Source: a virus
Lineage: Duplodnaviria > Heunggongvirae > Uroviricota > Caudoviricetes
Reading direction: 5' to 3' (one strand)
IMG/VR virus record: IMGVR_UViG_2703718872_000024
DNA length: 5,560 nucleotides
The position numbers and the translations under genes are program-made. This document shows positions 1 through 5,560 of this stretch, one piece after another. Each line of letters opens with the position of its first letter. Position 1 is the first letter of the stretch. The notes under the pieces were generated by a model. That model made no database searches, was not told the DNA's origin, and was given only the letters and a program-made list of their open reading frames with translations.

Positions 1-3000
1 GGTACAGGCCCGCCTTGCCCGTGGCAACGCGCCGACGGCGGAGGAGCTTGTACGTTCACAGATGGCTGAAGGTGATGCCGGTCCGACAGCACAGGAGTTA
101 ACTGAGCGTCCGCGTCTGCCCGCCCCCGGCGATATTCATCCCGGACAGGGATATCCGTTACCGGGAGAAGTGGCGCGTACGCCGGATGAAAATCAGGCCG
201 GACGTGGTGGTCGTTTTACCACAACCGGTGAGGTGAAGGGCCAGAGTTTCCAGAAAGGACGTGCGCAGGCACCGGAAAATGCCGCTGGTCGCCAGGGGGA
301 AATTCTGGAGGGCGAACCGGTTCGTCGTGGTCTGCCGTCACCGGATGAGCAGAACGCCACAGCACCAGTGCGTGAAGGACTTCCTGCACCTGAAAGTCAG
401 CGTGGGGTTGATATGCCACAGCCTGAATCACTCCCTCGTATGGTTCGTGACTCCCTTCCGGAACTGGCACAGCAGGCAGAAGCACGCAGACAGACCGGGG
501 ATCGCCAGACCATAACCGATGTTCCGGATACTGAGGTGCCGGTAGATAAACCGAGCACTCACCAGCAGGCGCGTGGTGCGAAAATTGAAGACTTTGGCGA
601 GGAGATTAAGGGCGCGGCAAAACACCGTTATGCGCAGCTTGCTGAAGCTATGGGTAAAACGCTGGAGGATGGGGAGTACGCGACACAACCACTGAGCAAA
701 CTGTTTCCAAAGCCGGATTATGCTCGTCTGGAAAAAGAAGGTGTGGATAGTGACACGCTGGCAATGATGGCGTTGTATCGCAGTGAAATTCCCACCAGAA
801 CAAGCCGTAACATGCAGAAATGGATCAGCATTGTTAAAAGCGGTCGCGAAGCTACTGCCGGTATGCTGGAGGGGAAAATTCCGGCAGCGAAACTGGCTGA
901 TATGATGGACAGTAAGCCGGGGTTACGGAGCATGTCGGATACCTGGAAACTGCTCCGTACGCTTTCTGCATTGCAGATTGATAAAGCATCCGGCTATCGT
1001 GTCAGGTCCGGTGTTTATTCGTTTGTCGGGGGAAAACGTTACGATCCGCCGCAAATGATGTATTCGCTTCGTGATAGCAAGGGGCGCGACCTCTTTTTCT
1101 CGGAAAGCCGGGATGAGTTACTGAAAAAGGCGAAAGCATATTTCGATGAACAAGGCTCCAGAGAAAGGGAAACGCCAGCAACCTCTGCTGATGACAGAAT
1201 AACCTTTGACGTGTACCGGCATAAGGCCAGTGGCGACATTTTTATCGGTTATGGCAAAAACAGGCAGAAACTGAAGGGCGGTTTTGAGTCTGCCCGTGAT
1301 GCACATGATTATGTGCGCACACATCGTGATGAGCTGGTTAATCAGGTGAAGGCGCTGCGTGAAGTCTCGCGTGAGGAGCAGCGTAACGCCACCAACCGCG
1401 ATCGTACCGGACCAGAACGCCGCAAGGGGGATGTTTCGCCGGAGCAGTTCAGTGATGCGTTTGGTTTTCGTGGTGTGCAGTTTGGTAATTATGTGGAAAG
1501 TCCGCGTCGTCAGGCTGATTTGAACCGGGCTTATGACTCGCTGCATGACCTGGCTGACGTGCTGAACGTGCCGACAAAAGCGCTTTCTCTGAACGGTCGT
1601 CTTGGGCTTGCTTTTGGTGCCCGTGGTAAGGGTAAGGCGGCGGCACACTATGAGCCGGGTGAGGTGGCAATCAACCTGACAAAAGGTAACGGACCGGGGG
1701 CGCTGGCCCACGAATGGTTCCATTCACTGGATAATTATTTTGGTCGTTATGATGTTTCCACTGACGGGAAGATCACGTCAGGTGGCGACTATATGACGGA
1801 AGCACAGCGTGCCGGGCGCGTATTTAAAGACGGCAGGTATGTTGATGCGGAATATCCGGTACGTCAGGAGGTTTACGACGCGTTTAAAGGCGTGATGAAA
1901 GCCATTAACAGCAGTGACATGTTGCGTCGTTCTGAACGCCTGGATGGCGTTCGTTCAAAACCGTACTGGTCAACGGATGTTGAAATGGCGGCGCGAGCCT
2001 TTGAGCGTTATGTTCAGGATAAAGCGCGTATGGCTGGCGTGGAGAATGATTATCTGGTCAATATCCGTAAGGCGGATGACCATGGACAGCCGGACACCTA
2101 CGCTTATCCGACGAATGCAGAACTGGATGGCGGTATTCGTGAGGCATTCGATCACTTGTTCCGAACACTGAAAACCCGTGAGACGGACAAGGGAGTTGCG
2201 TTTTATTCCCGTAAGGGCGTGACCCGCACACCTGAAGGCAATCTGATTTCGGATGTTAACCGCAGTGCGGAAGCCAAAGGCAGTCCGGTCTCGCAGGTTG
2301 AAGCTGTTGCCCGTGGCGTGATGAGCGGCATTAAGGACAGTGACCTGAAGGTCCGTGTGGTGAAGTCACAGAAAGAGGCTGAAGCGCTGGCGGGTGAATC
2401 GTTCGACGGTTACGGCAGGGTGCACGCATTCTATCGTCCGGATAAACGAGAAATTGTCCTGGTGGCGGATAACATCCCTGACGGGCGGACCGTACGCGAG
2501 AAGTTGCGTCACGAGATTATCCACCATGCCATGGAGCATGTTGTCACGCCAGCGGAATATCAGACGATTATCAAAACCGTGCTGAAAACCCGCGACAGTG
2601 ATAACGCCACCATCCGTGAAGCATGGCGTAAGGTTGATGCGTCCTATGGTAAGGAATCTCCGGAAGTACAGGCGGGTGAATTTCTGGCACATATGGCGGA
2701 GAAACAGCCGAATAAATTCGTGGCGGCATGGGAGCGTGTTGTTGCTCTGGTCAAAGGGGTACTGCGTCGTACGGGGTTACTGAAGCCGACGGAACTGAAC
2801 GATATCAGACTTGTTCGCGAGACCATCCGTACGTTAGGCCAGCGTGTGCGGGAAGGTTACACGCCGCGTGAGGATGGCGTGGGCGCATCGTCTCAGTACT
2901 CCCGTAGTGGTAAGCCTGATCCGTTCAAAGTGCCGGAAGGTGAGGGTGAACGTTATCGTGATGACCTTGCCAGAATGATGAAGTCGTTACGTTCTGGTGC

Positions 3001-5560
3001 AATGACTGCAAACATTGGGCGTACGCCGCCGGTATTGCGCCACCTTGGCGCACCGGATTTGCCGCTGGTTATCTCCCGCGACACTGTACGGAAGGCAACC
3101 AATGGCGTGAAACATGTGGTGCCAATGGATGTTATCGAGAGACTCCCGGAACTGATGCATGATCCGGATGCAATTTACCGTTCCGCGACAGAAAGAAATG
3201 CAGTTGTGATGCTGCTTGATGCCGTGGATAAAAATGGCGATCCGGTGGTGTCGGCAGTGCACATGAAGGCGACAGGTAAACGTCTGGAAATTAACAAAGT
3301 GGCTTCTGTATATGGTACGGAAAACGGGAAAAAGCTGAAAAGCATGGAAATGGCTGGATTAACGCTTTACCGGAAGGAAAAATTAAGCCGCGATAACCCT
3401 CAGTACAGTGGGCTCCAATTGCCCAAAGAGGAGCGTTCTTATCGCGGCTCTGTAGATAAAATACTCTATCCTGAAGATATTCGCAAGGGGCCGTATTACT
3501 CCCGTACCAGCAGTCTGACACCGGAAGAGACAATTATATCGCGTTTTGTGCGCCAGATGCAGGATAAATTCCGGGTGCTGAAAGCTGTTCAGGAGAATAT
3601 CCGTAAAACTGGCGGAAAAATAGACGATAGTAACAACGCTTATATGGCGGAAGAACTCTTCCACGGGAAGGCGGAAAACGACCTGAACGTGATGAAGGAG
3701 CGCTACGTTCAGCCACTGGCTAAATTACTGGCGGACTACAAAATTGCGCAGGCCGATCTGGATGAGTACCTCTACGCCCGTCACGCGCCGGAACGTAACG
3801 CACATATCGCGAAAATCAACCCGAAAATGCCGGACGGCGGTTCGGGGATGACCAACGCGGAAGCGGCGGAAATCATGCAGCGTGTGCGTAACAGTGGCAA
3901 ACAGGCACAGTATGACCGTCTGGCTGGGATTGTTGACGATATGCTGGCCCGTCGCCGTGAGCTTATCCGTGAGGCCGGACTGGAAGAGAGCGGAGTGGTG
4001 GATGCCTGGCAGAACGCCTACCGTTACTACGTTCCCCTGAAAGGTCAGGATGTTGACGGTATGGTGTCACTGCCCCGTACAGGTAAGGGCTTCACCATCG
4101 GCGGACGTGAAAGCAGGCAGGCCATGGGGCGTGCATCCCGTGCACAGTCTCCGTCCACTCAGGCGATACAGGACCTGAGCGAATCGCTGATCCGCCATCG
4201 CAAAAACGAAGTGGGTAACGCCTTCCTGAAACTGGTGCAGGATAATCCTGACAAGGATTACTGGCAGGTCTTCACTGATGACAGACCTGATACCATGCGT
4301 GCGATTGCAGAGCGTGTTGATCCGGAAACCGGTGAAACCCGTCGCGAAGTTGTCGAACGCCCTGTACCGATGGCAATGATGGCAGACCGGTACTTCACCA
4401 CCAAAAAGAACGGCAAAACGTACTACATCAAACTCCATGATCCGCGCCTGATGCGTGCGATGAAGAGTATGGGACCGGAAACCAGCAATGCCTTTGTTCG
4501 TACGCTGGGGAAAGTTAACCGCTTCCTGGCAACGGTGAACACGTCGTATAACCCGGAATTCCTGGTCAGTAACTTCATCCGTGACGTGCAGACGGCGGTG
4601 ATGAACCTGAAGGCGGAGCAGGGAAGGAGCGACGGTAAACTGAAAGGGCTGGATAACTTATCCGCCCTGGCTGTAGCCAAAGACAGCCGTTCTGCCATGT
4701 CAGCCGTATACGCCAGTCTGCGTGGTAAAACCCTCACGGGAAAAGGTGCACAGTGGCAGAAGGTGTGGAAAGAGTTTGTTGAGGACGGAGGGAAAACCGG
4801 CTGGTTTAACATGGGTGACCTTGAAGGCCAGCAGAAGGAAATGGATCGCCTTGTCTCACTGGCGAAGGGGGGATGGAAAGGCCAGAGTATCGGTGCATGG
4901 AATTCGTTCCTTAACCTTGTCGAGGATGCCAACGGTGCGGTTGAAAACGCTCTGCGTCTTTCTGCCTATAAACATGCCCGTGATGCCGGTTTGTCACGCC
5001 AGCAGGCGGCGTCTCTTGCCAAAAATATGACGGTGAACTTTAACCGTCGTGGTGAGCAGGGGGCGCTGATGAATTCGCTGTACATGTTCGCCAACGCCAG
5101 CATTCAGGGAACGGCAAATCTGGTGAGAACGCTCGGACATCTTAATGGAGAGGGACCTTTACTGGAGCGCCTTCGCTGGAAGAATCTGAATGTTCCGCAG
5201 AAAATCGCGCTTGCCGCTGTGGGAGCGGGTTATCTGCTTGGCTCGCTTAACCGCAGCGTGGCGGGTGAGGATGATGACGGGGTTAACTGGTATGACAAGG
5301 TGCCGTCTCATGTGAAAGAGCGTAACCTCGTCATTATGAAATCGGTGTTCGGGGGCAAGGCCGGAGAGTACTGGAGTATTCCTCTGCCTTACGGGTACAA
5401 CGTTTTCTTCCTGCTTGGTCACACAGCCGAAGGGGTGGCAGCGGGCGACCTGACCGCTTCACGTGCTGCCGGTAATGTTGTTGGTGGTGTGCTTGGGGCA
5501 TTCAGTCCTGTGGGCAGTGAAACGTCGGAAACACTGTCCGGGGCATTGCTGAAAAATGCA
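1..5560 (+). CDS. Internal fragment (5' and 3' truncated by the window) of a giant multidomain protein of more than 1,853 aa; hypothetically a phage/conjugative-element 'polyvalent' protein with zincin-like HExxH modules. Codon phase: first complete codon at nt 2-4, last at nt 5558-5560.
   Basis: Manual translation of frame 2 gives 1,853 consecutive sense codons and no TAA/TAG/TGA. The chance of this in random sequence is about (61/64)^1853, roughly 1e-39. Codon choice is strongly biased toward CTG/CCG/CGT/GCG/AAA/GAA. All other frames and the minus strand are broken into short ORFs. No start or stop codon for this gene lies in the window. Confidence 0.9.
20..560 (+). other. Low-complexity, probably disordered N-terminal region of the encoded protein (Pro/Glu/Gly/Arg/Gln-rich)
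   Basis: The translation reads ...GDAGPTAQELTERPRLPAPGDIHPGQGYPLPGEVARTPDENQAGRGGRFTTTGEVKGQSFQKGRAQAPENAAGRQGEILEGEPVRRGLPSPDEQNATAPVREGLPAPESQRGVDMPQPESLPRMVRDSLPELAQQAEARRQTGDRQTITDVPDTEVPVDKPSTHQQARG... It has few hydrophobic residues and recurring LPxP(D/E) motifs. Confidence 0.55.
317..466 (+). repeat. Degenerate tandem peptide repeat (about 16 aa per unit) within the low-complexity region; repeated at protein level, diverged at DNA level
   Basis: Unit 1 at nt 317-364 encodes PVRRGLPSPDEQNATA. Unit 2 at nt 365-412 encodes PVREGLPAPESQRGVD. A looser third unit at nt 413-466 encodes MPQPESLPRMVRDSLPEL. A related motif YPLPGEVARTPDENQ lies upstream at nt 152-196. The two main units use different codons (for example ccggttcgtcgtggtctgccg versus ccagtgcgtgaaggacttcct). 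Confidence 0.5.
1440..1760 (+). other. Candidate zincin-like metallopeptidase module (HExxH motif HEWFH at nt 1709-1723)
   Basis: The translation reads ...SPEQFSDAFGFRGVQFGNYVESPRRQADLNRAYDSLHDLADVLNVPTKALSLNGRLGLAFGARGKGKAAAHYEPGEVAINLTKGNGPGALAHEWFHSLDNYFGRYD... The H-E-W-F-H codons are cac gaa tgg ttc cat at nt 1709-1723. The Gly-rich FGFRGVQFGNY segment lies at nt 1460-1492. The call rests on the motif only; the fold is not verified. Confidence 0.45.
2402..2560 (+). other. Second candidate HExxH metallopeptidase-like module (HEIIHHAMEH at nt 2510-2539)
   Basis: The translation reads ...FDGYGRVHAFYRPDKREIVLVADNIPDGRTVREKLRHEIIHHAMEHVVTPAEYQTIIKTV... The HExxH residues are encoded at nt 2510-2524, followed by H at 2525-2527 and E-H at 2534-2539 as possible extra ligands. 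The call rests on the motif only. Confidence 0.4.
5201..5560 (+). other. Gly/Ala-rich, partly hydrophobic segment of the encoded protein (possible membrane-interacting or flexible region)
   Basis: KIALAAVGAGYLLGSL is encoded at nt 5201-5248. Further on come ...YWSIPLPYGYNVFFLLGHTAEGVAAGDLTASRAAGNVVGGVLGAFSPVGSETSETLSGALLKNA. The hydrophobic runs are about 15 residues, short for a canonical transmembrane helix. Confidence 0.3.

Follow-up and report, generated by a model that had tools for sequence, protein, structure and literature searches.

A cysteine-free giant protein of Shiga toxin-converting phages as a probable virion-packaged and ejected polyvalent effector

Introduction

Short-tailed, 933W-like phages that spread Shiga toxin (Stx) genes devote about 13% of their genome to a single giant gene. 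In phage Sp5, this gene (ORF80, encoding 2,793 aa) was among nine genes of previously unknown function found to be essential for infectious particles; Sp5 ΔORF80 makes DNA-filled heads that do not bind an anti-tail-fibre antibody and yields neither plaques nor lysogens (PMC5155283). Mass spectrometry of purified virions showed the phi24B counterpart, gp47, to be abundant, yet it is not visible in the symmetric cryo-electron microscopy map; it was proposed to be an encapsidated ejection protein (bioRxiv 10.64898/2026.04.10.717836). The gene was thus already annotated beforehand, its need in Sp5 morphogenesis had been established, and its product had lately been detected in phi24B virions. Here, the gene is examined from a stretch of 5,560 nucleotides (the window) of a caudoviricete record, IMG/VR IMGVR_UViG_2703718872_000024, which holds an internal part of it, and the probable role of the encoded protein is weighed against its alternatives.

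Several described systems provide points of comparison. Large polyvalent protein domains (LPDs) were defined in a survey of "polyvalent" proteins of phages and conjugative elements (Iyer et al. 2017, PMC5512222). Phage-type polyvalent relatives of the giant protein are virion-associated or essential where tested: JC1 gp69 was found in virions (51 peptides), and PTXU04 gp25 is essential. N4-like phages use an ejection operon encoding a small outer-membrane pore protein, a ~570-aa periplasmic tunnel protein, and a giant virion RNA polymerase whose conserved C-terminal region binds the tunnel protein; the DEV study described suppression of cysteine (Cys) as a conserved feature of this small-to-medium-to-giant operon and attributed it to passage through the oxidizing periplasm (PMC11445570). 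T7 gp14/gp15/gp16 and P22 gp7/gp20/gp16 are internal virion proteins that exit via the tail and form a trans-envelope conduit. Phage P1 DarB is a large, head-packaged protein that is injected to act early in infection, and it is the source of the "DarB-like" label given to some relatives of the giant protein.

Identity and Extent of the Giant Gene

Frame 2 of the + strand is open across the whole window (nt 2-5560), with 1,853 sense codons and no stop; the remaining five frames contain 157, 71, 25, 62, and 50 stops. From base composition, the probability of a stop codon is 0.045 and that of meeting none in 1,853 codons is ~10^-37. In shuffled sequence (n = 300), the maximum run of open codons over all frames was 168 on average and never above 352. 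GC content at codon positions 1, 2, and 3 (0.64, 0.44, and 0.55) matches the expectation for a genuine coding frame. A preliminary description of this DNA had reported the stop-free frame and argued that it belongs to a giant gene extending past both edges, and both claims held. In Escherichia coli 2012EL-2448, whose sequence differs from the window by 2 nt, the coding sequence (CDS) has 2,780 codons and measures 8,343 nt with its stop (region L001, 17899-26241). Its ATG lies 2,103 nt upstream of window nt 2 and its stop 681 nt beyond the window end, which places codons 702-2554, about the middle two-thirds of the gene, inside the window. Residue numbers below refer to the full protein; subtracting 701 gives the window residue. 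The window shows 2 nt differences from CDS C7A04_RS22930 of NZ_CP027586.1, and the RefSeq annotation is "LPD38 domain-containing protein" (WP_106913417.1). The preliminary description had also stated that the gene was missed by the open reading frame (ORF) track. It is indeed absent from that track, which contains only ORFs of 60-201 aa, because the track is limited to stop-delimited ORFs fully inside the window and excludes those running off either end. The omission is a mere convention of the track; RefSeq annotates the gene, and its orthologs have been studied. The frame is real, and the gene is already known and annotated rather than a new discovery.

By Megablast, the window was found in 426 of 5,426 complete E. 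coli genomes (about 8%), in 423 of them at ≥80% coverage, and every E. coli match falls under a CDS named "LPD38 domain-containing protein." A further 186 phage records match, nearly all of them Stx-converting phages. The protein matches PHROG 616 end to end (residues 1-2780 against 1-2793) and shares 92.7% identity with Sp5 ORF80 (ECs1242) over 2,780 aa, with colinear domain order and no frameshift. A search with the full-length protein returned only near-identical E. coli orthologs. The length of 2,780 aa compares with 2,793 aa for Sp5 ORF80 and a reported 2,811 aa for phi24B gp47. By sequence, the gene is an ortholog of Sp5 ORF80/ECs1242; its correspondence to 933W L0134 and phi24B gp47 is drawn from notes in the VT2-Sakai annotation and from the size and domains reported for gp47, which agree. 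It resembles Sp5 ORF80 along its full length, in its position as the last late gene, and in the absence of Cys, and differs in a cassette at aa ~800-1150 (see below).

A Shared C-terminal Module with Exchangeable Cargo

When the N-terminal, middle, and C-terminal parts of the protein were used as individual tblastn queries, only the last ~915 aa (aa 1866-2780) proved to be widely shared. The first 689 aa of this C-terminal module, delimited by phmmer and tblastn, lie in the window (nt 3494-5560, + strand), where the window end truncates it. The Pfam domain LPD38 (aa 2463-2668; nt 5285-5560 within the window) models 189 aa of the ~915-aa module, which also holds moderately hydrophobic helices at aa 2430-2454 (nt 5186-5260). 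Giant proteins of 3,000-4,600 aa match the module in Vibrio phages (41.7% identity), Ralstonia phages, Burkholderia phage Bcep22 (gp75, annotated "DarB-like"), and a Methanosarcina virus, and tblastn matches extend to Bacteroides and Bacillus phages. When the part of the module contained in the window was used as a phmmer query against 1.84 billion cluster representatives, 7,972 clusters were returned at E ≤ 1e-3 and 4,097 at E ≤ 1e-30. The module is present in 148-149 of the 150 representatives listed, and its C-terminal tail segment was detected in 124 of them, typically ending 2-5 residues from the C-terminus. By comparison, each segment upstream of the module occurs in only 1-47 of the same 150. 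The other cargo carried by relatives includes lytic transglycosylase, methylase, SNF2 helicase, RadC, RelA/SpoT, and acetyltransferase domains. These sequence comparisons show a modular protein, in which a C-terminal module common to thousands of phage giant proteins is combined with exchangeable upstream cargo.

The same LPD38-containing module is found at 22-42% identity in Bcep22 gp75 and JC1 gp69, Vibrio phage D458 VPHD458_0021, Ralstonia phage Dimitile D1_00049, and coliphage PTXU04 gp25. In the Vibrio D458, Bcep22, and Dimitile loci, the block of virion genes likewise closes with the giant gene, preceded by a gene of medium size (~470-530 aa in complete cases). What varies is the cargo: Bcep22 gp75 carries a lytic transglycosylase, a methylase, an SNF2 helicase, and LPD3, whereas the Stx-phage protein carries LPD5, two zincins, and a PBECR domain. 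The Methanosarcina virus MetMV, whose recorded host is an archaeon, has a gene (L008 2584-11592) for a protein of 3,002 aa with 3 Cys. The C-terminal part of this protein covers 91% of the module at 27.7% identity.

Cysteine Avoidance and the Late Operon

The giant protein contains no Cys in 2,780 aa (P ~4e-14 at 1.1% Cys). The avoidance extends to the family, with 52 Cys in the 381,259 aa of the 150 representatives (0.014%) and none at all in 120 of them. It also extends to the neighborhood. The giant gene is the last of five consecutive Cys-free genes encoding 218, 148, 90, 421, and 2,780 aa (L001 15166-26241), a total of 3,657 aa, while the portal (6 Cys), TerL (9 Cys), tail fibre (5 Cys), and other virion proteins of the same prophage do contain Cys. 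The near-absence of Cys described for podovirus ejection proteins (PMC11445570) is therefore seen here as well, and because these five products are Cys-free, unlike the portal, TerL, and fibre, the analogy suggests that the whole block is an ejection operon.

Examination of the flanking genes placed the giant gene at the end of the late (virion) operon of a short-tailed, 933W-like Stx prophage, with tail genes on one side and the prophage end at wrbA on the other. In E. coli 2012EL-2448, the prophage inserted at wrbA has stx1a along with a major capsid gene of the N4-gp56 type. Its late genes are ordered as in VT2-Sakai H0146-H0150, equated in the notes of that record with 933W L0130-L0134, and the giant gene directly follows the L0133 homolog, as in Sp5. 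None of the upstream neighbors is assigned a known function by PHROG, and the 421-aa neighbor (ORF79 homolog) has no match in the PDB by sequence. The 90-aa gene (933W L0132 homolog, L001 16281-16553) encodes a protein whose C-terminal 40 residues form a Gly/Ala/Val glycine-zipper hydrophobic segment with a Kyte-Doolittle hydropathy (KD) of 1.95, and PHROG profiles matching this segment come from the C-terminal regions of tape-measure proteins and tail lysins. On these sequence features, the 90-aa protein is a candidate membrane-inserting ejection protein.

Parallels with the N4 system go beyond composition. The virion RNA polymerases N4 gp50 and DEV gp71 are likewise giant (3,400-3,500 aa) and Cys-free (N4 gp50 by our own count), have a zincin-like motif, and are packaged in the capsid, as the Stx-phage protein probably is. 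They are encoded last in a small-to-medium-to-giant series (gp52/73, gp51/72, gp50/71) that the gene order seen here would fit, and their conserved C-terminal region mediates encapsidation as well as tunnel-protein binding. The N4-type major capsid protein and a T=9 capsid are further points of likeness. N4 gp50 has an RNA polymerase domain and the giant Stx-phage protein does not. T7 and P22 ejection genes, the proposed functional analogues, share an order with a large last member (PMC11445570), but their proteins show no sequence or predicted-fold similarity to the giant protein, which is two to three times larger and carries several cargo domains. The resemblance to T7 and N4 ejection operons is accordingly put forward as functional analogy, not as shown ancestry or membership.

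Proposed Role and Alternatives

Collectively, these observations make it probable that the giant protein is a virion-packaged, ejected polyvalent effector that also serves as a conduit protein of 933W-like (Sepvirinae) Stx phages. The C-terminal module would target the protein into the capsid and to a portal-proximal ejection machinery, probably together with the 421-aa neighbor. After release of the tail needle, the protein would be expelled, unfolded, through the tail into the cell envelope, where Cys avoidance would prevent its trapping by disulfides in the periplasm. The module and the small glycine-zipper neighbors could then help to build or line a trans-envelope DNA conduit, and the upstream LPD5, zincin, and PBECR domains would reach the cell interior and turn against host functions early in infection. 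The cargo domains may be released by self-cleavage through the protein's own zincin domains.

A number of results weigh against this proposal. As regards location, what has been published for members of this family and for LPD38 proteins is virion association, with ejection and delivery put forward as proposals. The AlphaFold2 model of the module is mostly helical and of moderate confidence (predicted local distance difference test score 68.8), and the module's hydrophobic helices are weak (KD 1.0-1.2). Neither a profile search of the module nor a phmmer search of the full protein found a match in the PDB; Foldseek of the module model against the PDB gave no meaningful match (best E = 0.3), and against BFVD it returned only other uncharacterised polyvalent-protein C-termini. 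Alignment of the module profile with the C-terminal 1,400 aa of N4 gp50 by hhalign gave a probability of 0.35%, that is, no homology. The enzymatic functions of all the cargo domains are predicted from sequence. The E. coli 2012EL-2448 prophage, the one host genome inspected (L001 1-27000 and L002 22000-43001), is decayed: it holds three copies of IS1A, its genes for the major capsid protein and the Q antiterminator are frameshifted, and it lacks most of the early region; the 8.3-kb giant gene is intact despite this decay but may no longer be used there. The main discordant fact is the ΔORF80 phenotype, which the Sp5 authors read as a role in tail assembly (PMC5155283) and which the loss of a purely internal cargo protein would not obviously cause. 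It is compatible with an internal protein that docks at the portal before stable tail attachment.

The same phenotype is the chief argument for the strongest alternative, in which the protein mainly serves tail assembly or head completion, as a structural or scaffold component of the portal/tail junction, without being delivered into the host. In its favor are the filled heads that lack anti-tail-fibre binding, the failure to form plaques or lysogens (PMC5155283), and the place of the giant gene at the close of the tail-gene block. Even so, we regard this alternative as unlikely. gp47 is abundant in virions and yet is not part of the structures that were resolved (portal, adaptor, nozzle, needle, and fibre); a scaffold role would hardly account for a chain of 2,780 aa with two zincins and an RNase-like domain; and family-wide Cys avoidance and swappable cargo point to translocation. 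Structural and delivery roles are not exclusive, as a portal-docked internal protein could be needed for stable tail attachment.

It is more improbable still that the protein acts only as a DarB-like antirestriction or host-takeover effector, dispensable for the particle and for DNA entry. PHROG 10089 ("DarB-like antirestriction") matches aa 2338-2668, and relatives of the Bcep22 gp75 type are annotated as DarB-like and carry methylase and SNF2 helicase domains. The PHROG 10089 match, however, is confined to the shared C-terminal module. Pfam and NCBIfam scans found no methyltransferase or helicase domain in the Stx-phage protein, which thus lacks the N6-adenine methyltransferase and SF2 helicase domains that define P1 DarB, and no PADLOC defense model was matched. 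Dispensability is also at odds with ORF80 being essential for plaques and lysogenization in the Sp5 assays and with PTXU04 gp25 being essential.

A bacterial surface adhesin or secreted toxin, options raised by the preliminary description and favored by size alone, can be set aside given a hydrophilic N-terminus with no signal peptide, the lack of tandem or internal repeats and of adhesin, RTX, or autotransporter Pfam domains, a position inside the late operon of a phage, flanked by tail genes and the end of the prophage, and an ortholog found in virions. The description was right that the protein is non-repetitive and without adhesin-like architecture, with Tandem Repeats Finder reporting only four short arrays (19-28-nt units, 1.9-2.8 copies) and self-BLAST of the giant protein no internal repeat, and its option of a phage multidomain protein agrees with the late-operon location, the missing signal peptide, and the four "large polyvalent protein" domains identified by Pfam. 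That the frame is a fused-assembly artefact, or a decaying pseudogene still open in a degraded 2012EL-2448 prophage, can likewise be dismissed, since the same intact, full-length gene recurs in 423 of the complete E. coli genomes (n = 5,426) and 186 phage genomes, occurs in functional phages such as Sp5, 933W, and phi24B, and is colinear with its orthologs without a frameshift, and since the chance probability of the open frame is ~10^-37.

A broader proposal is offered tentatively, as a possibility we do not favor over its negation. The ~915-aa module may be a universal "packaging-and-ejection adaptor" that forms, with the Cys-free products of the upstream genes, an ejectosome analogous, and not detectably homologous, to those of T7 and N4. 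Such an adaptor would let podoviruses of bacteria, and apparently one or more viruses of archaea, bring into the cell whatever effector is joined to its N-terminal side; the LPD5 cassette would be an exchanged effector allele, and the HExxGH...EExxAH domain would represent an undescribed self-processing peptidase family. If this is true, the LPD5 cassette allele could affect which E. coli strains are converted by Stx phages. More generally, the module defines a very large family without a solved structure, and the packaging and ejection route, together with the roles of the peptidase and RNase-like domains, would bear on the host range of Stx phages and on the lysogenic conversion of new pathogenic strains. 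The present analysis goes modestly beyond the cited papers, with leads that comprise the extent (~915 aa) and strict C-terminal position of the module, Cys avoidance in the family and the gene neighborhood, a second zincin-fold domain without a Pfam model, the allelic LPD5 cassette, and corrections to two published domain statements.

Domain Anatomy of the Cargo Region

Four Pfam domains were identified in the full protein: LPD5 (aa 1044-1187, 147 bits), LPD1 (aa 1348-1427, 81 bits), MuF_C (aa 1737-1828, 65 bits), and LPD38 (164 bits), against cutoffs of 27-27.6. As in polyvalent proteins, several unrelated domains are joined in one large chain with LPDs above threshold, and the chain includes the zincin-like metallopeptidase of the phage type and is encoded among virion (late) genes. 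The window opens in the distal part of a linker (nt 2-598, + strand; protein aa ~441-900) recognized by its composition in 100-aa blocks. It is low-complexity, acidic, and rich in Pro, Gly, Ala, and Gln, has no Pfam match, and is found in 2 of the 150 family representatives; this composition indicates that it is probably disordered. The GC content of the first 500 nt of the window is 0.62. LPD5 follows (nt 1028-1459, + strand; PF18799, E = 4.5e-43), with conserved residues R1162, R1169, G1171, and R1175, and it is listed by Iyer et al. as possibly enzymatic (PMC5512222).

The first zincin domain, Zn1 (aa 1191-1345), and the adjoining LPD1 (E = 7e-23) together span nt 1469-2179 (+ strand). Zn1 contains H1250, the motif H1271-E-W-F-H1275, and D1278 (motif at nt 1709-1732), all conserved in relatives. 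It is assigned as a phage-type polyvalent metallopeptidase because these residues match the published signature, in which strand 2 ends in a His and an Asp follows HExxH by three residues (PMC5512222). LPD1 retains a conserved E1362, and the Zn1/LPD1 region gave an NCBIfam CLCA_X match of 153.6 bits, below the cutoff of 260. A second zincin-fold domain, Zn2 (aa 1465-1690; nt 2291-2968, + strand), has the family motif HExxGHxG...~55 aa...AEExxAH, represented here, in the form HExxxH...E, by H1538-E-I-I-H-H1543 (nt 2510-2527) and E1594 (nt 2678-2680). The spacing of this motif may resemble that of M49/DPP-III-type zincins. Zn2 has no Pfam-A model and is the commonest cargo domain of the family, located directly upstream of the C-terminal module.

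The MuF-C/PBECR domain (nt 3107-3382, + strand; PF18819, E = 7e-18) has candidate catalytic residues H1739 (nt 3113-3115, conservation 0.96) and S1803 (nt 3305-3307, conservation 0.94). Active PBECR RNase-like domains are defined by a His and a Ser (PMC5512222), and the domain is predicted to have a metal-independent RNase fold. Two published assignments were not retained. The phi24B preprint describes MuF-C as a metallopeptidase (bioRxiv 10.64898/2026.04.10.717836), whereas Pfam and Iyer et al. classify it as PBECR RNase-like, and the zincins lie upstream of it. The Sp5 paper suggests an AAA+ ATPase (COG1483; PMC5155283); neither a Walker A ([GA]xxxxGK[ST]) nor a Walker B (hhhhD[DE]) motif occurs in the 2,780 aa, and no ATPase Pfam domain was found.

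Upstream of the window, aa 161-440 (L001 18379-19218) form a Gly/Ala-rich N-terminal domain that is common to Vibrio-phage giant proteins (29% identity) and 9 of the 150 representatives. Of all 19-mers in the protein, just one is clearly hydrophobic (aa 182-200, KD 1.51), and it lies in this domain, as does a run of GxxxG at aa 409-428.

Allelic Variation among Stx Phages

Comparison with Sp5 ORF80 in 50-aa blocks revealed an allelic cassette at aa ~800-1150 (nt 296-1348, + strand), comprising the end of the linker, the region preceding LPD5, and most of LPD5. The cassette is 46-84% identical to Sp5 ORF80, and almost all of the rest is 88-100% identical. Among Stx phages, aa 901-1865 fall into two allele groups, at ~98% (30 records) and ~85% (155 records) identity. 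The C-terminal module is 97-98% identical among the same phages, and a 484-aa N-terminal query is mostly 92-99% identical. At the sequence level, the divergent cassette and the two-allele pattern suggest that one cargo domain has undergone mosaic exchange or diversifying selection. Relative to loci with 933W-type orthologs, the prophage here carries stx1a and is partly decayed.

Other Features of the Locus

Antisense ORFs of 102-200 aa in the window match no Pfam family above threshold and are shadows of the coding frame. No RNA family was found in the window by Rfam, and promoter and terminator scans inside the gene gave fewer sites than in shuffled sequences. Three places on the E. coli 2012EL-2448 chromosome match the window. 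Outside the window, between the 421-aa gene and the giant gene, a terminator-like hairpin of 7 bp (6 G-C) followed by a run of 7 T lies at L001 17862-17881, 37 to 18 nt upstream of the ATG. The old VT2-Sakai annotation adds 13 N-terminal residues, MPGHCAGFFYGVC, including 2 Cys, which are what results when the hairpin is translated. A start at MAYSEEQ, preceded by GGAG, is more plausible than the VT2-Sakai start.

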